The notes: generated by a model not told the origin, from the letters alone. A DNA stretch of 64,000 nt from an uncultured Bifidobacteriaceae bacterium (GCA_964501785.1 CAZCUD010000010.1:66088-130087), one strand, 5' to 3'; shown: positions 44,097-59,611, counted from the stretch's first letter. Numbers and translations are program-made.

Positions 44097-44141
44097 CGCC
44101 GGACTCGAGCTCGCGGTGCCCGCGGCTCCCGCGGCTCCCGG

Positions 44142-44180
44142 GGCGCCCTCGGCAGGACTCGAACCTGCGCACACGGCTCC
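44142..44180 (-). repeat. tRNA 3'-end-like fragment, copy A (39 nt)
   Basis: The minus strand reads GGAGCCGUGUGC GCAGG UUCGAGU CCUGC CGAGGGC G CC, that is a T arm plus a 3' acceptor strand. It is identical to 44247-44285. No D arm or 5' acceptor follows. Confidence 0.7.
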
Positions 44181-44246
44181 CGGGTGGGGTCGGTGACCGA
44201 TGAGCATCGGACTCCGGAGCCGTGGTCGAGCGCCCTCGGCAGCCGC

Positions 44247-44285
44247 GGCGCCCTCGGCAGGACTCGAACCTGCGCACACGGCTCC
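44247..44285 (-). repeat. tRNA 3'-end-like fragment, copy B (39 nt)
   Basis: Identical to copy A. A 12-nt partial copy (CGCCCTCGGCAG) also sits at 44231-44242. The flank does not fold into a tRNA by hand. Confidence 0.7.
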
Positions 44286-44714
44286 GGAGGCCCTTCCGGA
44301 CTGTCCAAGCAGTCCAACGAGTGTGCCTCCGTTGCCCTGACCTGCAGCTTCGCGTCCGTTGTGTCCAGGGCGCCTATCCCGTCACTCCGAGTTGATTGAC
44401 AACCGGATTGACAGTCCCGTGGCGAGAATACCGAGAGTCGGCCCGCCGTCAACGACCAATCGCGGTGGGGATCGAGGGGGGACGACGAGCGCGTGTGGCG
44501 AGTCCGCTCTCAGCTCTCGGCCTTCCTGAACGCCATGACGAGCGCGAACGCAACGGCCCTAGTCGAGAAGAGCCGCCCAGGTGCTTCCATCGAGTCGCCC
44601 ATTCGGTAGAGGTTCGGGGTACAGGTCGACCCAGACAGGATGTCCATCTGGCTGCTCCACATCGGACACACGACTCGACGCTCACGTCGGCTCATACTTC
44701 TAGACGGGAACCGC

Positions 44715-46815: not shown

Positions 46816-46986
46816 GGCGCCCCCGGCAGGATTCGAACCTGCGACGCACGGTTTAGGAAGACACTCCGAGTCGTCCAGCCAGACCACTCACGTCCAGCGG
46901 GTGTTGTTCTGGCAGGACTCTACGTGCATTGCGTCCAGCCAGTGTCACGGCGTGTGCTGGAGTAGTAGGGCTGGCGGTAGGGACGA
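46816..46986 (-). repeat. 171-nt direct repeat, copy 1: tRNA-Arg(CCU)-like 3' half plus arm-like region
   Basis: The first 52 nt are identical to 59441-59492. The minus strand reads UUCCUAA ACCGU GCGUC GCAGG UUCGAAU CCUGC CGGGGGC G. The tail carries CGTCCAGCCAG x2, one GTAGGG (46965-46970) and one GTAGGGA (46977-46983). Confidence 0.75.
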
Positions 46987-47036: not shown

Positions 47037-47726
47037 TCACGACGCTGTGGCCGGTTCTATCGGTTCGGCCGACGCGACCGGGTAGCCGGCGCGTCGCCAC
47101 TCGGGGTATCCGTCCTCGAGCCGGCGCGCCGTGCGACCGCGCTGTTGGAGCTGTCGCACGGCGTCATCGGCGTACACGCAGTAGGGGCCGCGGCAGTACG
47201 CGACGACTTCGATGTCTTCCGAGAGCGTGGCGAGCTCGTCGGCGAGGCGATCGAGTGGGATCGAGCGAGCGCCGAGCACATGGCCGGCCCGGTACTCGGC
47301 TTCGGGGCGGACGTCGACGACCACGATGTTGCCTTCGTCGAGGCGGCGCGCGAGCTCGTCGCGGGTGATGGCTTCGAGCGCGTCGCGTGCGCCGAGGTAG
47401 TCGACCGCGAGCTTCTCGATCCCGGCGATCTGGGCCGCCGCCACGTCGCGCAAGGCCGTCCAGAGCGCTTCGATGTCCTCCGAGGCGAGTCGGTAGTAGA
47501 TGCGGGTTCCGTCTCGGCGAGTGGTGAGGAGCCCGGCGCGGGCGAGCACTCGTAGGTGGTGGGAGGTGTTGGCGGTGCTCTGTCCGATCTCGGTGGCGAG
47601 GTCGTCGACCGAGCGCTCGCCTTGCGCGAGGACGTCGACGATCTCGGCGCGCCGGCCGTTCGAAAGAGCCCGCGCCACGTCGGCGAAGGCATCGAAGAGC
47701 GCGTCCTTGGCTGCCCGATCGGCCAT
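47037..47726 (-). CDS. ArsR/SmtB-family regulator fused to a C-terminal rhodanese domain
   Basis: wHTH AEIVDVLAQGERSVDDLATEIGQSTANTSHHLRVLARAGLL. Rhodanese part VVVDVRPEAEYRAGHVLGARSIP with active loop AYCRGPYCVYA. Confidence 0.85.
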   Translation of the reverse strand: MADRAAKDALFDAFADVARALSNGRRAEIVDVLAQGERSVDDLATEIGQSTANTSHHLRVLARAGLLTTRRDGTRIYYRLASEDIEALWTALRDVAAAQIAGIEKLAVDYLGARDALEAITRDELARRLDEGNIVVVDVRPEAEYRAGHVLGARSIPLDRLADELATLSEDIEVVAYCRGPYCVYADDAVRQLQQRGRTARRLEDGYPEWRRAGYPVASAEPIEPATAS

Positions 47727-47754
47727 CTGGTGAGTCTGCGGCGATCTGGCGCTA

Positions 47755-47784
47755 TTGTCAAGTAATCAAATGACTACTTGACAA
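47755..47784. promoter_or_regulatory. Perfect 10-10-10 palindrome, candidate ArsR operator spanning two divergent -35 boxes
   Basis: TTGTCAAGTA (47755-47764), a 10-nt spacer, then TACTTGACAA (47775-47784). Each arm contains TTGACA pointing toward one of the divergent genes. It is AT-rich in GC-rich DNA. Confidence 0.55.
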
Positions 47785-47836
47785 GCCCGTCCGGGCCGGC
47801 GTAGGAAGGGTGATGTCGTCTCAGTGAGGGGGAGTC

Positions 47837-48610
47837 ATGACTCGAATCGACGTCGAGGAGCTTCGGGGCAAGGTCCAGGCGATGTACAAGGCAGTCGCCG
47901 AAGACCCGCACGGTGAGTTCCACTTCGAGATGGGACGCGCGCTCGCGGAGCGGCTCGGCTACCCCGCGTCAGCGCTCGACCGTGTCCCGACCGAGGCGAT
48001 CGAGTCGTTCGCCGGCGTGGGCTACCACCTCGACCTCGCGCGGCTCGCGCCCGGCGAGCGAGTCGTCGACTTCGGGAGCGGCTCGGGGATGGACGCCTTC
48101 CTCGCGGCGCGACAGGTCGAGCCCGACGGTGCGGTCGTGGGAGTCGACATGACCGACGAGCAGATCGCGAAGGCGCGTCGGCTCGCGAAGCGAGACGGCT
48201 TCCTGTGGACGACTTTCGAGCGCGGCTACCTCGAGGACGCACCGGTCGAGGACGCATCGGCCGATGTCGTGCTGAGCAATGGCGTCATCAACCTCTGCGA
48301 CGACAAGCAGGCGGTCTTCTCCGAGATCGTTCGCATCCTCCGTCCGGAGGGCAGGATGGCCATCTCCGACATCGTCACGGAGCGTCCGCTCACCGAGGCG
48401 ATCGTGTGCGACGTGAACCTCTGGGCGTCGTGCATCGGCGGTGCGATGCAGGTCGACGACTACACCGCGGCGATCGAGGCGGCGGGCCTGCGAGTCTCGG
48501 AGGTGCGGGAGAACCCGCAGTACCTCTTCCTTTCGGAGTCGGCCCAAGGGGCGACCGAGACGTTCGGTGTGAAGAGCGTCTCGGTGCTCGCGGTCAAGCC
48601 GTCGTCGTGA
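47837..48610 (+). CDS. ArsM-like class I SAM-dependent methyltransferase lacking two of the three As(III)-binding cysteines
   Basis: VVDFGSGSGMDAFLAA SAM motif. ArsM-type blocks read SFAGVGYH (canonical LGCGNP), LSNGVINL (canonical SNCVINL) and ASCIGGA (Cys kept). Confidence 0.75.
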   Translation: MTRIDVEELRGKVQAMYKAVAEDPHGEFHFEMGRALAERLGYPASALDRVPTEAIESFAGVGYHLDLARLAPGERVVDFGSGSGMDAFLAARQVEPDGAVVGVDMTDEQIAKARRLAKRDGFLWTTFERGYLEDAPVEDASADVVLSNGVINLCDDKQAVFSEIVRILRPEGRMAISDIVTERPLTEAIVCDVNLWASCIGGAMQVDDYTAAIEAAGLRVSEVRENPQYLFLSESAQGATETFGVKSVSVLAVKPSS

Positions 48611-49983
48611 GCGCGCCTGGATCGACCGCGACGGATCGCGTGCACGAGTTGCGCGACGACGCGTTGGCGAACACGTCCTTTCTCGTCGACGTCGGAGGCG
48701 GTGAAGCCGTCGTCGTCGATCCGCCGCGCGACGTCGACCGTCACCTCCGCTTGGCGGACGAGCTGGGGGTGCAGATCGTCGCGACGTTCGAGACGCACGT
48801 GCACGCGGACTACGTGAGTGGAGCCACCGAGCTCGCCGCGCTCGGCGCCCAGGCGGTCGTGCCGGAGGGCGCGCGGCCAGCGTGGGCGCATCGGTCGATC
48901 AGTGACGACGAGGTGTACGAGGCCGGGCGGGCACGTCTGCGCGCGATGGCGACGCCTGGGCACACGCCCGAGCACATGGCGTACGTGCTCGAGGTCGACG
49001 GTGTCGCGGTCGGGGTCTTCGCGGGCGGCTCGCTGATCCAGGGTGGTGCCGCGCGCACCGATCTCCTCGGCCCGGAGCACACCGAGGAGCTGGCCCGGGC
49101 CCAGCACGCGAGTCTGCGGCGCCTGGCGCGCCTTCCGGACGCGACTGCCCTGTATGCCACCCACGGTGCAGGATCGTTCTGCCATGCGAGCTCGGTGACA
49201 GTCGAGCACCCGACGATCGGTTCCGAACGCGCGACGAACGCGCTTCTGTCGATCGAGGACGAGGACGGGTTCGTCGCCGCGCTCACCGCCGGGTTCGGGT
49301 CCTATCCCCGCTACTACGCGCACCTCCCGGCGCTCAACGAGGCAGGACCCACGCCGATCGCCAGCCTCCCGGAACCTGGCCGTCTCGCCGCTCGAGAGGT
49401 CGCACGCCGGCTCGACGCGGGCGATGCCTGGCTCATCGACGCACGCGACATCGCTGACTGGGCGCGCGGGCATCCCCGGGGCGCGATCTCGAACGCGCTT
49501 CGACCTGCTTTCGCGTCGTGGCTCGGATGGGTCGTGCCCTTCGGCGCTCCGGTGATCGCGCTCGTCGATCCCGACGGCGAGGAGGAGCTCGTTCGCTTGG
49601 CCCGCCGCATCGGCTACGACGACGTTGCGTTCCTCGACGGCGGCATCGACGCGTGGCGCGCGGCGGACCTCCCCATGGACGCCGTCGCCGAAGTCGACGC
49701 CGAACGAGCGCGTCAGCTGCACCACGACGGGGCGACACTGCTCGACGTCCGCCAGACCTCCGAGCTCGACGTGCTTCGGATCCCGGACGCGATCCACGTG
49801 GAGCTCGGCGACATCATCAGTGGCGCCTTCCCCGACGGTCAGAGTCCGCACATCGTCTTCTGTGGCCACGGCGAGCGCTCGGCGACTGCGGCGAGCCTGC
49901 TGGAACGTCGCGGGCTCGAGGTCGTCAACCTCGTCGGCGGCACCAGCGCATGGGTCGAGGCGGGGCTTCCGGTCGAGCCCTGA
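48607..49983 (+). CDS. MBL-fold hydrolase (persulfide dioxygenase-like) fused to two rhodanese domains
   Basis: The GTG start overlaps the upstream stop (GTGA). THVHADYVSG metal motif, TPGHTPEH. The second rhodanese has active loop VFCGHGERS. CstB/Blh-like architecture. Confidence 0.8.
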   Translation: MSAPGSTATDRVHELRDDALANTSFLVDVGGGEAVVVDPPRDVDRHLRLADELGVQIVATFETHVHADYVSGATELAALGAQAVVPEGARPAWAHRSISDDEVYEAGRARLRAMATPGHTPEHMAYVLEVDGVAVGVFAGGSLIQGGAARTDLLGPEHTEELARAQHASLRRLARLPDATALYATHGAGSFCHASSVTVEHPTIGSERATNALLSIEDEDGFVAALTAGFGSYPRYYAHLPALNEAGPTPIASLPEPGRLAAREVARRLDAGDAWLIDARDIADWARGHPRGAISNALRPAFASWLGWVVPFGAPVIALVDPDGEEELVRLARRIGYDDVAFLDGGIDAWRAADLPMDAVAEVDAERARQLHHDGATLLDVRQTSELDVLRIPDAIHVELGDIISGAFPDGQSPHIVFCGHGERSATAASLLERRGLEVVNLVGGTSAWVEAGLPVEP

Positions 49984-51284
49984 TGCTCCGCCAGACGCCG
50001 ATCGCCATGGCCGACGATGCACCGGCGCGACCGCGCCTGGGCCTGCGCGAGAACTGGCGACAGTTCACGCTGCTCGTCGTCGTCAACGCGTTCGTCGGCG
50101 CGATGGTCGGCATCGAGCGCACGGTGCTCCCGCTGCTCGCCGACGAGGAGTTCGGGGTCGCCTCCGCGTCGGCGGCGCTGGCGTTCCTCGTCGCGTTCGG
50201 GATCACCAAGGCCTTCGCCAACCTCGCGGCCGGACACCTCGCCGACCGGTTCGGCCGCAAACGAGTGCTCGTCGCCGGCTGGATCGCGGCGTTGCCCGTC
50301 GCGCCGATGATCATCCTCGCCCCGTCATGGGGCTGGGTGGTCGCGGCCAACGTCTTCCTCGGCGTCAACCAGGGATTGGCATGGTCGACGACCGTCAACA
50401 TGAAGATCGACCTCGCCGGGCCTCGCCGACGCGGCTTGGCGTTGGGCCTCAACGAGGCCGCGGGCTACGGCGCGGTCGCGCTTGCCGCGGCGGTGACCGG
50501 TCTGATCGCCGCCTCGTACGGCCCGACGCCGTGGCCATGGGTGATGGGCATCGGAATCTCGCTGGTGGGCCTCGTGCTGTCGATCGCGTTCGTGCGCGAG
50601 ACCCACGGACACGCCCGAGAAGAGGCGCGCCTGCACCATCGAAGCGAAGGCGACGAAGCGCCCCGATTCCGAGAGACGTTCGCGACCACGACGTGGCGCG
50701 ATCCGTCCCTGTCGGCAGTCAGTCAGGCCGGCCTGGTCAACAACCTCAACGACGCGCTCGTCTGGGGACTCGTCCCGCTCTACCTCGCCACGCAGGGACT
50801 GTCGGTCGGGCGCATCGGAGCCGTGGCAGCGACGTATCCCGCCGCCTGGGGGATCGCGCAGCTCGGGACCGGCGCATGGTCCGATCGCGTCGGACGCAAA
50901 CCACTGATCGTCGCCGGACTCGCGCTCCAAGCCGTCGGCATCGCCGGCCTTGCCGCAGCCGACGGATTCGTCGGCTGGCTGATCTGCGCACTCGTGATGG
51001 GACTCGGCACCGCGATGGTGTATCCGACGTTGATCGCGGCGATCGGCGACCGCGCGCACCCAGCATGGCGCGCATCGGCGGTGGGCGTGTACCGCCTCTG
51101 GCGCGACCTCGGCTACGCGGTGGGTGGACTCGTCGTCGGCATTGTCGCCGACGCAGTCGATGACCGTTTCGCGATCGTCACCGTGGCCGCGCTCACCGCG
51201 CTGTCCGCGTTCGTCGTGCTACTTCGGATGCGAGAGACGCTGGCGCCACGATCGGCGAGCGCCGAGGACGCGCCGGTCGACTGA
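49983..51284 (+). CDS. MFS transporter
   Basis: The ATG at 49983 overlaps the upstream TGA. 12-TM-like pattern. MFS motif A-like LADRFGRKRVL and WSDRVGRKPL. Confidence 0.8.
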   Translation: MLRQTPIAMADDAPARPRLGLRENWRQFTLLVVVNAFVGAMVGIERTVLPLLADEEFGVASASAALAFLVAFGITKAFANLAAGHLADRFGRKRVLVAGWIAALPVAPMIILAPSWGWVVAANVFLGVNQGLAWSTTVNMKIDLAGPRRRGLALGLNEAAGYGAVALAAAVTGLIAASYGPTPWPWVMGIGISLVGLVLSIAFVRETHGHAREEARLHHRSEGDEAPRFRETFATTTWRDPSLSAVSQAGLVNNLNDALVWGLVPLYLATQGLSVGRIGAVAATYPAAWGIAQLGTGAWSDRVGRKPLIVAGLALQAVGIAGLAAADGFVGWLICALVMGLGTAMVYPTLIAAIGDRAHPAWRASAVGVYRLWRDLGYAVGGLVVGIVADAVDDRFAIVTVAALTALSAFVVLLRMRETLAPRSASAEDAPVD

Positions 51285-51290
51285 GCGAGC

Positions 51291-51659
51291 TCAGCAGGCG
51301 TCGCCCGCGGCGTCGCACACGCAGAACTCGTTGCCCTCGGGATCCTGCATGAGGATCCAGTTGCTGCCGTGCTCCGCAAGCGCGTCCGCACGCACGCGCT
51401 GCGCACCGAGTCCGGCCAGGCGCGAGGCCTCGGCCTCGATGTCCGGGGTGTGGATGTCGAGATGCATCCGCAGCTTCGTCGCCTTCGCCTCGGGCACCCG
51501 CTGCAACAGCAGCTGAGGACCCGACTCGCCTCCTGCGGGGAGGAGGAGGCGATAGCTGCCGGCCGCACCGACGTCCACGTAGCCCAACGCCGGCGCCCAG
51601 AACTGGGCCAACCGATCAGGATCCGCGCAGTCGAGCACCAGACCGATCTTCGCCGTCAC
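51291..51659 (-). CDS. VOC (glyoxalase/bleomycin resistance/dioxygenase) family protein
   Basis: 122 aa. LVLDCADPDRLAQFWAPALGY ... HLDIHTPD ... MQDPEGNEFCV fits the small VOC fold. Confidence 0.75.
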   Translation of the reverse strand: MTAKIGLVLDCADPDRLAQFWAPALGYVDVGAAGSYRLLLPAGGESGPQLLLQRVPEAKATKLRMHLDIHTPDIEAEASRLAGLGAQRVRADALAEHGSNWILMQDPEGNEFCVCDAAGDAC

Positions 51660-51756: not shown

Positions 51757-52518
51757 GTGGTCATGGAGGCGAACACCGCCCACGCCGACGGCGAGGCCGT
51801 CGAGGTGCTGACCGTCGACGAGCTGGCAGCCCGGGTCGGCCTCCCGGTGCGCACGATCCGCGAGTACCAGACGATGGGCCTGCTCCCGCCGCCCGCACGG
51901 CGAGGACGGGTCGGCATCTACGGGCCCGGTCACGTCGCTCGCCTCGAGCTGATCGGTCGACTCCAAGCGCGCGGCTACTCCCTCGCGGGCATCCGCGATC
52001 TCCTCCACGCGTGGCGCGAGGGCGCCGACCTCAGCGAGGTTCTCGGCCTGCGCGCCGACGAGCTTGTGCACGTCGAGGAACCCGGGGCACCTGTGACGGC
52101 CGGCCAGCTCGCCCGCGCGCTCCCGGGGCTCATCCCTGAGCACCGCGACGAGCTCCTCGCCACGGGCGTCGTCGAAGTGGGGAGCGGCGACACCTACTGC
52201 GTGCCGAGCCCGTCACTGCTCCAGCTCGGCGCCGACGCGCTGCACCTCGGCTACGCCCCCGAAGCCGTGCTGGGCCTCTTGCGTGCGCTGCGCCGAGCTG
52301 CCGACACCGTCGCCGATGCCGCGCTCGAAGCGATCGGCGAATTCCCTCCGCAGGCCGATGCCGGCGAGCTCCTCGCCTTCGCTACGCGTGCACGAGGGTT
52401 GCTCGCGCACGGCACCGGCCGACTCGCGATCCACACCCTCGGTGCCCGGCTCGGCATCACCGACGAAGAGCAGGTCACCGACGGACTCCGTCGGCTCCTG
52501 GAAGGAAGCCACCCATGA
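51757..52518 (+). CDS. MerR family transcriptional regulator
   Basis: N-terminal HTH LTVDELAARVGLPVRTIREYQTMGLLPPP and the RLELIGRLQARGYSLAGIRDLL dimerisation helix. Confidence 0.8.
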   Translation: MVMEANTAHADGEAVEVLTVDELAARVGLPVRTIREYQTMGLLPPPARRGRVGIYGPGHVARLELIGRLQARGYSLAGIRDLLHAWREGADLSEVLGLRADELVHVEEPGAPVTAGQLARALPGLIPEHRDELLATGVVEVGSGDTYCVPSPSLLQLGADALHLGYAPEAVLGLLRALRRAADTVADAALEAIGEFPPQADAGELLAFATRARGLLAHGTGRLAIHTLGARLGITDEEQVTDGLRRLLEGSHP

Positions 52519-53414
52519 CCGACGTGGTCCGCGAACCCGGCTCGGTCGTGCACGGTGACGAGCTGTGCATCCGCGATCCCGCCGGCGCCGACCGCGCCGC
52601 CATCCCGACCACCGATGCCGACCACTCGCCACCCGAGGATCCCGACGGCGCCGACCGCATGCTCGCCCCCGTCGGCGACACTCTCCTCGCGGCCGCGGCG
52701 CTCGAGACCGGCGAGCACGTCCTCGACATCGGATGCGGCGCCGGCGCCACCGCACTGCTCGCCGCCGAGGCAGTCGGATCGCACGGAAGCGTGCACGCGG
52801 TCGACGTCACCCCCGAGATGCTCGACATCGCGCGTGCACGCGCCTCATCGGCGGGTCTCGACGGTGTCACCTTCGTCGAAGCCGATGCTCAGACCGACGA
52901 GCTACCCGGCCCGGCCGACGTCGCCATCAGCCGCTTCGGCACCATGTTCTTCGACGACCCGGTCGCCGCCTTCACCAACCTCCGACGCGCGCTCGCGCCG
53001 GGCGGCCGCCTCTGCATCGCGACCTGGCAGCCACTCGAGACCAACGCGTGGCTCGTCATCCCCGGCGCCGCCCTGCTCCACTGGATCGAGCTCCCCGCGA
53101 CCGACGGCCCAGGACCAGGCATGTTCTCCCAGTCCGACCCCACTGTCGTCGAGAGCACGCTCAGCGACGCCGGGTACCGCGACATCACTGTGCAACCGGT
53201 GAAGCTCGCGCTCACCCTCGGCCACGACCCCGACGCCGCGCTCGCACGACTCCTCGACACCGGCGTCGGCCGCGCCGCCATCGCGGCGGTCCCCGACGGG
53301 GCACGCCCCGAAGCCCTCGATGCCGTGCGCGCGGCGCTCGCCGACCACAGCGGGCCAGGGGGAGTCCAGGTCGGAGCGGCGATCCTTCTCTCCACCGCCA
53401 CTCGCGAGTCCTGA
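52515..53414 (+). CDS. Class I SAM-dependent methyltransferase
   Basis: ATGA overlap with the merR stop. VLDIGCGAGATAL motif I and GGRLCIATW. Confidence 0.8.
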   Translation: MTDVVREPGSVVHGDELCIRDPAGADRAAIPTTDADHSPPEDPDGADRMLAPVGDTLLAAAALETGEHVLDIGCGAGATALLAAEAVGSHGSVHAVDVTPEMLDIARARASSAGLDGVTFVEADAQTDELPGPADVAISRFGTMFFDDPVAAFTNLRRALAPGGRLCIATWQPLETNAWLVIPGAALLHWIELPATDGPGPGMFSQSDPTVVESTLSDAGYRDITVQPVKLALTLGHDPDAALARLLDTGVGRAAIAAVPDGARPEALDAVRAALADHSGPGGVQVGAAILLSTATRES

Positions 53415-59440: not shown

Positions 59441-59611
59441 GGCGCCCCCGGCAGGATTCGAACCTGCGACGCACGGTTTAGGAAGACACTCCCGACCGTC
59501 CAGCCAGACTACTCACGTCCAGCGGGTGTTGTGCTGTAAGGACTCTACGTCCATCGCGTCCAGCCAGTGACACGGCGTGCGCTGGAGAAGTAGGGATGGC
59601 AGTAGGGACGA
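59441..59611 (-). repeat. 171-nt direct repeat, copy 2
   Basis: 52 nt are identical and there are 15 mismatches in the remaining 119 nt versus 46816-46986 (hand alignment). GTAGGGA occurs at 59590, 59602 and 59615. Confidence 0.75.

Follow-up and report, generated by a model that had tools for sequence, protein, structure and literature searches.

Known systems related to the locus

The closest described regulators, BigR, SqrR, HlyU and YgaV, are ArsR-family winged-helix repressors, and their sulfur-handling genes (an MBL-fold enzyme, a rhodanese and a membrane transporter) are divergent or co-transcribed. Blh is the partner of BigR; in the ygaV-ygaP pair of E. coli, YgaP supplies the rhodanese as a protein of its own, located in the membrane. 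A locus of similar make-up is present in the window, a stretch of 64,000 nucleotides from an uncultured Bifidobacteriaceae bacterium, and thiol sensing by two cysteines would be expected of its regulator as well. In sensors of the BigR/SqrR type the two cysteines lie on helices alpha2 and alpha5, within the DNA-binding domain, and form a tetrasulfide bridge (PMC10054925). In contrast, the DNA-binding domain of the regulator described here is free of cysteines, and the pair is located in the active-site loop of a fused rhodanese domain.

A second related system is CstR/CstB of Staphylococcus aureus, together with ETHE1, a persulfide dioxygenase of humans. The MBL-rhodanese protein of the locus has the domain order of CstB, with an MBL domain followed by an inactive and then an active rhodanese domain. 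It retains the HxHxD motif, the histidine of the second motif, the cysteine of GAGSxC and the cysteine of the C-terminal rhodanese domain. The regulators differ, as CstR is CsoR-like whereas the regulator of this locus is an ArsR-rhodanese fusion.

The DNA-binding half of the regulator is closest to a mycobacterial fragment annotated as 'possible ArsR-family' (2kko/3gw2, the closest PDB match of the protein, E 2.5e-20), which we take to be Mb0332, the homolog of Mycobacterium tuberculosis Rv0324. The genes Rv0324 to Rv0326 are co-expressed, and overexpression of Rv0324 shifts their level; Rv0324 itself has been placed in networks of hypoxia and drug tolerance, with no explicit link to sulfide (PMC4916473). 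Rv0325/Rv0326 represent an interrupted gene which is intact in M. bovis as Mb0333 (PMC2277376). Unlike the locus in the window, the Rv0324 module is not reported to have an MBL or MFS partner.

S-methylation of H2S and methanethiol by MddA, MddH and MddM1/2 has been described as a detoxification (PMC11445057, PMC12904073); both H2S and oxidative stress induce this SAM-dependent methylation, whose protective role is a proposal (PMC12904073). The original prediction regarded a methylation step coupled to persulfide oxidation and export as an undescribed pathway. Detoxification by S-methylation is now on record, although with methyltransferases of other families. A SAM-dependent methylation is likewise proposed for the locus in the window. 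By their descriptions, however, MddM1 and MddM2 (204-210 aa) are of the UbiG-/UbiE-type, MddH belongs to the UbiE family and MddA is an integral membrane protein, whereas the methyltransferase of this locus is ArsM-like and has 257 aa. For none of the Mdd enzymes does the description mention a likeness to ArsM, a link to a rhodanese regulator or membership of a CstB-like operon.

Organization of the locus

The locus comprises four genes, and the coordinates originally given for them were all borne out. The gene for the regulator (47037-47726, minus strand) encodes a protein of 229 aa, consisting of an ArsR/SmtB winged-helix repressor and a C-terminal rhodanese domain. Beyond a divergent gap of 110 bp, three genes follow on the plus strand. 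They encode a SAM methyltransferase with the ArsM fold, belonging to a 'VG' type (47837-48610), a CstB-like protein of 458 aa with an MBL and two rhodanese domains (48607-49983), and an MFS transporter of 433 aa (49983-51284). The transporter scored 161.8 bits against Pfam MFS_1, and no NCBIfam model reached its cut-off with this protein. The ATG of the methyltransferase gene is preceded at 4 nt by a Shine-Dalgarno-like GGGGGAG. The GTGA overlap between the stop codon of the methyltransferase gene and the GTG start of the MBL-rhodanese gene is real (48607-48610). The ATGA that had been read at the next junction is actually TGATG, with the stop codon at 49981-49983, the ATG at 49983-49985 and an overlap of one base. 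The entire four-gene unit is carried on a segment of 12.6 kb bracketed by repeats.

Regulator and operator

Pfam located an HTH_5 domain at residues 25-68 of the regulator and a rhodanese domain (PF00581, 60.7 bits) at residues 121-212. The protein scored 81.6 bits against the NCBIfam ArsR/SmtB model NF033788 (cut-off 55), and 46.6 bits against the BigR model, which is below the cut-off of 155. The CRGPYC loop noticed previously in the rhodanese domain is present. It contains the sole cysteines of the protein, C178 and C183, and residues 1-177 are without cysteine. C178 occupies the catalytic position at the start of the rhodanese active-site loop and was conserved in 27 of 27 homologs, C183 in 26 of 27. 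CRGPYC is atypical for a sulfurtransferase loop, as the second cysteine takes the last position, which is Arg, Ser or Thr in the usual loops.

The divergent gap contains a putative operator (47755-47784, not assigned to a strand), which is a perfect 10-10-10 inverted repeat of the form TTGTCAAGTA-N10-TACTTGACAA. Each arm holds a TTGACA hexamer, and each hexamer faces one of the two genes. In the 3.8-Mb genome this was the single site when up to 3 mismatches were allowed, and a reversed control pattern gave zero sites. In Actinomycetota and Proteobacteria, the genes of many homologous regulators are preceded by related palindromes, including TCAAGT-N12-ACTTGA, TATTCAA-N8-TTGAATA and, at locus L006, TATTCAACTA-N10-TAGTTGAATA.

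ArsM-like methyltransferase

Comparison of the methyltransferase with CmArsM by phmmer gave an E value of 4e-26. The top PDB matches found by Foldseek for its AlphaFold2 model (pLDDT 93) were the ArsM structures 4fr0 and 6cx6 (TM 0.73-0.74, with about 31% identity to CmArsM). The protein thus shares the fold of ArsM/AS3MT, and also the SAM-binding motif and the equivalent of Cys224, as Cys224 of CmArsM (GECLGG) aligns with C199 (ASCIGG). Cys72 (FYGCGS) and Cys174 (SNCVCNL), however, align with V61 (FAGVGY) and G149 (SNGVINL), in agreement with the original observation that two of the three As(III)-binding cysteines are missing. V61, G149 and C199 were invariant in 80 of 80 orthologs and C191 was present in 76 of 80. 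Judged from these alignments, the absence of the Cys72 and Cys174 equivalents is a fixed trait of the family. The score against the NCBIfam ArsM model NF008823 was 213 bits, below the cut-off of 263, and no ars gene was found among the neighbour families common to at least 5 of the 80 loci. With both cysteines lost in all orthologs and a score below the ArsM cut-off, a role as a classical arsenite methyltransferase appears unlikely, as had been suspected. Within a library of representatives, ArsM clusters with all three cysteines (C/C/C) scored lower than V/G clusters. Many database sources label the orthologs 'arsenite methyltransferase'.

The column of C199 holds an in-frame TGA in all 22 actinobacterial paralogs that were read, the motif being TGA-I-A-G there and C199-I-G-G here. 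Hairpins were located after the TGA codons of the paralogs. SelB scored above the cut-off in 4 of 4 tested genomes with TGA paralogs; a profile search of the genome of the methyltransferase itself gave no SelB above the cut-off. Its sequence places the methyltransferase, as a Cys form, in the known 'UxxG' family of methyltransferases with Sec or Cys. Its CxxG lies in the column that holds Sec in relatives, which the original prediction had missed. This family of selenoproteins named 'arsenite methyltransferase' is on record in the GOS selenoproteome (PMC2398784) and in a review (PMC13188914), where it is listed by homology only. Neither the missing As(III) cysteines nor the linkage to an ArsR-rhodanese regulator is mentioned in the family literature that was found.

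MBL-rhodanese protein

The MBL-rhodanese protein matched the PDB entries 3tp9 at 1.2e-65 and 3r2u at 1e-36. According to Pfam and the alignment, two rhodanese domains follow the MBL domain; the middle one of the protein is free of cysteine, and the C-terminal one has C419. The metal-site residues H64, H66, D68, H119 and H186 are kept in the MBL domain. H64, H66, D68 and H119 were invariant wherever homologs align at these positions (117-119 of 119), and C419 and C192 (GAGSFC) were invariant among the 119 homologs. The aspartate iron ligand, which lies in F-S-G-D of 3tp9 and 3r2u and is Asp154 in ETHE1, is replaced by Gly141 (FAGG). All 119 close homologs had glycine at this position, as did all 20 regulator-linked actinobacterial copies. 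A 2-His-1-Asp iron site is the defining feature of persulfide dioxygenases. The protein had been matched to the architecture of these enzymes, and the CstB-like domain order agrees with that; the label itself is unsafe, since the Asp of the iron site is missing. Another contig of the same genome carries a canonical CstR-CstB-TauE-rhodanese operon, whose MBL paralog keeps the Asp (TGD).

Conservation of the gene set

The fused regulator was present in 28 of the 80 loci with a methyltransferase ortholog, and 11 of the 80 contained all four genes. As these loci span Actinomycetota, Alpha-, Beta- and Gammaproteobacteria and Myxococcota, the arrangement is conserved and not due to chance; a survey of its conservation had been proposed with the original prediction. 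The recurring gene set is a candidate route for the sensing and removal of a reactive sulfur- or selenium-like compound. Full-length homologs of the regulator occurred in 82 of 401 Actinomycetota genomes sampled. Among the 38 Actinomycetota genomes with a strong full-length match to the methyltransferase, 27 had the regulator as well, compared with 81 of 400 in the whole set, and in 13 of them both genes were located within about 4 kb.

In 52 of the 80 loci the methyltransferase occurred without the regulator, and it should therefore have a function of its own. Elsewhere, the genes that recurred beside it included an ECF sigma factor paired with a zinc-finger anti-sigma factor; a truncated globin and a cysteine desulfurase were others. 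In the survey centred on the regulator the usual neighbours were the MFS and the MBL-rhodanese genes. No other gene accompanied the fused regulator elsewhere as constantly as this MFS, which adjoined ArsR-rhodanese genes in most actinobacterial loci examined and was the sole partner at some of them (L130-L133).

Proposed function

The best explanation of the unit is a stress operon that is complete in itself and served by one operator; together with the following mechanism this is given about an even chance. A dimer of the ArsR-rhodanese protein would bind the 10-10-10 palindrome and mask both TTGACA hexamers, so that both divergent promoters are off. The signal would be a persulfide or polysulfide as donor of sulfane sulfur, or else a soft chalcogen species of similar chemistry. 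It would load onto C178, and C183, five residues further on, would resolve the adduct to a di- or trisulfide within the loop. The change in the loop may then be transmitted to the cysteine-free DNA-binding domain, with release of the DNA. Of the enzymes produced, the methyltransferase probably holds a small sulfur or selenium nucleophile or a persulfide at Cys199 for SAM-dependent methylation, and the MBL-rhodanese-rhodanese protein would handle persulfide sulfur on C192 and C419. Owing to the remodelled metal site its chemistry may not be canonical dioxygenation. The MFS transporter would export the product or the offending compound.

Sensing and detoxification of reactive sulfur by this operon is plausible but unproven. 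Control by the putative operator agrees with the divergent, translationally coupled layout, with the uniqueness of the palindrome in the genome, with the related palindromes at homologous regulators and with the conserved loop pair as the sole cysteines of the regulator, and the linkage of regulator and methyltransferase recurs in several phyla. In favour of sulfur are the CstB-like architecture with both cysteines of CstB, the rhodanese domains in two of the four proteins and the recurrent neighbours of the methyltransferase elsewhere, among which ars genes were not found; S-methylation of H2S and methanethiol provides a precedent. The invariance of Cys199, together with TGA in 22 of 22 paralogs and SelB in the 4 of 4 genomes tested, suggests that this is a key residue. 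On the other hand, the canonical CstR-CstB operon is already present in the genome, and a second sulfur system would thus need a distinct role. The missing Asp ligand of the MBL domain, the atypical CRGPYC loop, the occurrence of the methyltransferase without the regulator in 52 of 80 loci and the mycobacterial data on hypoxia and drug tolerance (PMC4916473) also count against it. Of the original reading, the divergent unit, the loop cysteines, the Cys-deficient methyltransferase and the conserved gene set stand, while the persulfide dioxygenase label is unsafe; the sequence does not decide among sulfur, selenium and arsenic as the signal.

A C-x4-C dithiol would react also with selenite, tellurite, arsenite and general oxidants, and selenium and tellurium are serious rivals of sulfur. 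Selenite or tellurite would form a selenotrisulfide with the two loop cysteines and release the repressor, the methyltransferase would methylate selenide or a perselenide on Cys/Sec199 to volatile methylselenides, and seleno-thiol adducts would be processed and exported by the MBL-rhodanese and MFS proteins. The reaction of dithiols with selenite is fast. The rhodanese domain of the regulator gave sub-threshold matches to NCBIfam models of rhodanese-related selenoproteins (TsoB, LYCAU type), and the best full-length NCBIfam alignments of the methyltransferase after ArsM were to ArsM-like selenoprotein families. Residue 199 is Sec in relatives, and the recurring neighbours of the orthologs include a class-V aminotransferase of the cysteine desulfurase / selenocysteine lyase type. 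The use of Sec by an enzyme, however, tells nothing about its substrate. The genome has the Cys form with no SelB above the cut-off, the unit is without a selenium-specific gene, and CstB-like proteins and rhodanese domains are classically sulfur enzymes; detoxification of selenium or tellurium is considered possible but doubtful. It is rated as improbable that peroxide, diamide, quinones or redox changes in hypoxia simply oxidise the loop dithiol to a disulfide, as in a general sensor of thiol oxidants or electrophiles. The operon would then export or modify a thiol-reactive xenobiotic, and the methyltransferase would cap a reactive thiol compound. In about 24 of the 80 loci the methyltransferase adjoins an ECF sigma factor, in some with a zinc-finger (RsrA-like) anti-sigma factor, a pairing typical of thiol-oxidative stress regulons. 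A general sensor of this kind would also agree with the MFS as the most constant partner of the regulator and with the response of the mycobacterial module to hypoxia (PMC4916473). A catalytic rhodanese fold as the input and a CstB-like partner nevertheless favour sulfane sulfur over plain oxidation, and persulfide sensors of the ArsR family are not known to respond to peroxide (in agreement with PMC10054925).

A divergent unit for arsenic or antimony is very improbable. Its regulator would sense As(III) or methylarsenite, C191 and C199 would form a two-cysteine methylarsenite site, and the MFS would be an ArsK-like efflux pump. The regulator is of the ArsR family, ArsM is the closest solved fold, orthologs are often named accordingly, and in some ArsR and ArsM proteins a site of two cysteines is enough for methylarsenite. 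However, the equivalent of Cys174, which to our knowledge every characterised ArsM needs, is Gly in 80 of 80 orthologs, and C191 is replaced by Arg in the four Sec-type relatives with full sequence read. Moreover, the methyltransferase remained below the ArsM cut-off, the 80 loci had no recurrent ars neighbours, and Acr3 was not found in this genome. In the regulator, the positions of the known As(III) sites of ArsR proteins are all without cysteine.

In a bolder reading, the ArsR-rhodanese protein might represent a new class of one-component sensor with a catalytically competent rhodanese domain as input, partnered by a new enzyme activity, a sulfane-sulfur or perselenide methyltransferase; this reading is rather unlikely. 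If it were true, Cys/Sec199 would carry a persulfide, SAM would methylate the terminal atom, and methanethiol (or methylselenol) would be released, by a route distinct from persulfide dioxygenation and from the Mdd enzymes. In that case the CstB-like protein, which lacks the Asp, would not be a classical dioxygenase but would relay sulfur or act as another kind of oxidase with a 3-His site.

Organization and conservation of the divergent unit

The source genome is GC-rich, 3.8 Mb in size, assembled into 23 contigs and 98.8% complete, and its nearest database relatives are Acidimicrobiales and Microthrixaceae. In the region 47037-51284, a minus-strand gene for a 229-aa fusion of an ArsR-type winged-helix domain with a rhodanese domain faces three plus-strand genes, which encode a methyltransferase of 257 aa, a protein of 458 aa with an MBL and two rhodanese domains, and an MFS transporter of 433 aa. 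The original prediction had proposed translational coupling at both operon junctions. The GTGA between the methyltransferase and MBL-rhodanese genes was confirmed at 48607-48610, but the supposed ATGA between the MBL-rhodanese and MFS genes was actually TGATG, with the stop codon at 49981-49983 and the ATG at 49983-49985 overlapping by one base.

The 110-bp divergent gap contains a candidate operator, the perfect palindrome TTGTCAAGTA-N10-TACTTGACAA at 47755-47784, either arm of which includes a TTGACA hexamer directed at one of the genes. A search allowing up to three mismatches showed that the palindrome is unique genome-wide, and no further operator site was found in the 3.8 Mb; the regulon would therefore consist of the window unit alone. 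Related palindromes occur upstream of many regulator homologs (TCAAGT-N12-ACTTGA, TATTCAA-N8-TTGAATA), and the same 10-10-10 layout is present in L006, a locus from outside the window. The relation of regulator, operator and operon is well supported. A scan for consensus promoters and terminators gave no match in the divergent gap or 3' of the MFS gene, as can be expected of an actinobacterium with high GC content.

Conservation of the four-gene arrangement was surveyed using 80 methyltransferase orthologs from reference genomes (59-73% identity), which were from Actinomycetota, Proteobacteria, Nitrospira, Gemmatimonadota and archaea. The arrangement is conserved across phyla: the fused regulator was present in 28 of the 80 loci and all four genes in 11, from Microthrixaceae, Alpha-, Beta- and Gammaproteobacteria and Polyangia, while Gemmatimonadaceae loci combined regulator, MFS and methyltransferase genes. 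The MFS gene was the most constant neighbour of the regulator in Actinomycetota, at times the sole one. MBL-rhodanese genes adjoined it in about two thirds of the actinobacterial loci and a methyltransferase of this family, mostly of the selenocysteine (Sec) type, in a minority; as the genomes sampled were partly fragmented, these adjacency counts are lower bounds. Of 38 genomes in which the methyltransferase search gave a strong full-length match, 27 had the regulator, versus 81 of 400 overall, a tendency rather than a test since related genomes are not independent, and in 13 of the 27 both genes lay within about 4 kb. The methyltransferase as a recurrent member of the regulon is a new finding.

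Other recurrent neighbours of the methyltransferase were genes for an ECF sigma factor, a cupin, a truncated globin and a cysteine desulfurase-like enzyme. The ECF sigma factor adjoined it in L008, L044, L064, L080 and about 20 other loci, many of them proteobacterial. Some of these loci also contained a small anti-sigma factor of the zinc-finger type and another methyltransferase paralog, 40-45% identical, with V/G/C at the three ArsM cysteine columns and a conserved Cys near residue 37.

The methyltransferase and its Sec/Cys residue

Alignment by phmmer with solved structures, using CmArsM as ArsM reference, placed V61 (FAGVGY) at Cys72 (FYGCGS) and G149 (SNGVINL) at Cys174 (SNCVCNL), while Cys224 (GECLGG) was retained as C199 (ASCIGG). 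The earlier reading that two ArsM cysteines are missing was thus borne out. V61, G149 and C199 were invariant in the 80 orthologs, so the losses are not a local mutation; C191 was present in 76 of them. The protein scored 213 bits on the NCBIfam arsenite methyltransferase model (cut-off, 263), and its AlphaFold2 model (pLDDT 93) matched ArsM structures best, with a TM score of 0.73-0.74. Among 1.8 billion representative proteins, 763 clusters matched below 1e-30. The nearest were almost all of the type with Val and Gly at the first two columns (V/G type), and true C/C/x/C ArsM clusters scored lower at 36-45% identity, which places the methyltransferase in a large sister clade of ArsM. A classical ArsM was rejected on the grounds of the two missing cysteines, the score below threshold and the lack of ars genes among the recurrent neighbours. 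Several sources nevertheless name members of the V/G-type clade 'arsenite methyltransferase', and surveys of the potential for arsenic methylation may be inflated where they include such genes.

When 400 Actinomycetota genomes were searched, many full-length matches of 40-49% identity contained one in-frame TGA. Of 24 such paralogs read, 22 had a parsable motif (LW-T-G-TGA-I-A-G), and in all 22 the TGA lay exactly in the C199 column, the columns of Cys72 and Cys174 being occupied by a non-cysteine residue and Gly, respectively. Folding of four of the sequences predicted hairpins 3' of the TGA each time, and SelB scored above the curated cut-off in all four tested genomes with such paralogs; the SelB profile score in the window's genome was not above it. 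The TGA-bearing paralogs (L137 1130-1882, L107 667-1419, L109 801-1445, L134 5882-6484 and L138-L156) are probably selenoproteins, which gene calling with table 11 would shorten. Many of them adjoin ArsR-rhodanese genes.

A UxxG-containing selenoprotein named 'arsenite methyltransferase' has been reported (PMC2398784, PMC13188914). At the same column the window protein has CxxG, which together with the position of the TGA identifies it as the Cys form of a known Sec/Cys family. C199 would thus be the key catalytic residue, and this Sec/Cys residue is likewise new for the unit. In four Sec-type paralogs with full sequences the C191 column was Arg, so a metalloid site built from two cysteines is not a general feature of this family.

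Detoxification by methylating sulfide and methanethiol has been described for MddA, MddH and MddM1/2 (PMC11445057, PMC12904073), but these belong to other families and have no link to such an operon. Equivalence of the methyltransferase with MddH or MddM was set aside; by published description these enzymes are of the UbiE and UbiG families, and MddM1/M2 measure 204-210 aa as against 257 aa here. A literature search for ArsM homologs acting on sulfur gave nothing useful. The Sec/Cys residue offers a defined catalytic site for probing methylation of sulfur or selenium, a matter relevant to how volatile compounds of the two elements are produced.

The MBL-rhodanese protein and a canonical cst-like operon

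The best solved relatives of the MBL-rhodanese protein were the CstB-type proteins 3tp9 (1e-65) and 3r2u (1e-36). Domain order and two cysteines, C192 in GAGSxC and C419 in the C-terminal rhodanese domain, are common to these proteins and the window protein, whose middle rhodanese domain is without cysteine. CstB, BpPRF and ETHE1 have [ST]-G-D where the window protein has A-G-G; in published structures the missing Asp provides the carboxylate ligand in the 2-His-1-Asp iron site. The Gly at this position, Gly141, was found in 119 of 119 close homologs and in all 20 regulator-linked actinobacterial copies examined, and in proteobacterial clusters the short MBL protein had TGD (6) or TGH (4). As H64, H66, D68, H119 and H186 remain invariant, the metal site has more likely been remodelled, perhaps into a 3-His site, than lost to decay. 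Judged by these residues, the protein does not qualify as a canonical persulfide dioxygenase, and the missing Asp cautions against giving that name to every MBL-rhodanese fusion.

A canonical persulfide-stress operon was present in the same genome on a different contig, on the minus strand of C1 at about 100.7-103.6 kb (L095 4719-7604). It encodes a repressor of the CsoR/CstR family (PF02583), an MBL-rhodanese-rhodanese protein resembling CstB in which TGD is intact, the sulfite exporter TauE and a single rhodanese. The window unit as a simple second cst copy was rejected, since the canonical copy keeps the Asp and has a CsoR-type regulator. Ordinary persulfide detoxification is probably covered by that operon, and the window unit should have a distinct role. 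Both the loss of the Asp from the MBL domain and the canonical operon in the same genome are new observations.

The regulator and its signal

Among 401 Actinomycetota genomes sampled, 82, from 63 of 249 genera, had a full-length homolog of the regulator, and the fusion also occurs in Proteobacteria, Myxococcota and Gemmatimonadota. In L036 (2117-2774), from an alphaproteobacterial genome, a homolog is split over two frames by a frameshift or an assembly error. The best solved relative was a mycobacterial ArsR-like fragment (2kko/3gw2), which we take to be Mb0332, a homolog of Rv0324. M. tuberculosis Rv0324, a hub of the hypoxia and drug-tolerance network, seems to be a member of this family. 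It is reported to be co-expressed with the adjacent Rv0325-Rv0326 in a module linked to hypoxia (PMC4916473); those two represent one interrupted gene, of which M. bovis has an intact copy (PMC2277376). ArsR-rhodanese fusions were not found in the literature searched; an ArsR similarity-network paper reported rhodaneses only as neighbouring genes of the persulfide-sensor cluster, with no fusion.

The only cysteines of the regulator, C178 and C183, lie in the rhodanese loop CRGPYC and were kept in 27 and 26 of 27 homologs, respectively. Sulfane sulfur could well be the signal, a reading favoured by a rhodanese as input domain, by the partner resembling CstB and by the genes that adjoin members of the unit in other genomes. 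Selenite or tellurite, either of which the C-x4-C dithiol would capture, is a rather unlikely signal, although a Sec/Cys methyltransferase fits chalcogen chemistry; general thiol oxidants are unlikely. Arsenic is the least likely candidate and quite improbable: the DNA-binding half is without the cysteines that define As(III)-binding ArsR proteins, and Acr3 was not found in the window's genome. The cysteines of BigR/SqrR-type persulfide sensors are also absent from this half, and the BigR model score was far under the cut-off. If sulfane sulfur or another signal is sensed by the rhodanese loop, this would carry over to the whole regulator family.

Genomic surroundings

Two 171-nt direct repeats (46816-46986 and 59441-59611), 91% identical and 12,625 bp apart, bracket 12.6 kb, and the unit begins 50 bp inward of the left copy, at the ArsR-rhodanese gene. 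The bracketed segment is probably a genomic island carrying the unit; this layout is consistent with horizontal acquisition and with the unusually high identity that the methyltransferase shows between phyla.

Beyond a Glyoxalase_6 gene (51291-51659, minus strand), a separate pair in 51757-53414, just downstream of the unit, encodes a 253-aa MerR-family regulator that has a long extension at its C terminus and a second class-I SAM methyltransferase (299 aa), the two genes overlapping by ATGA at 52515-52518. On the other side, the segment 44715-46733 has a lower GC content (61-63% versus about 71%) and two minus-strand ORFs (228 and 327 aa) for which Pfam gave no match. A tRNA-Arg(CCG) gene lies at 44247-44324 on the minus strand, within 44125-44324, where 56 nt of its 3' part are directly repeated, at 44125-44180 and 44230-44285.
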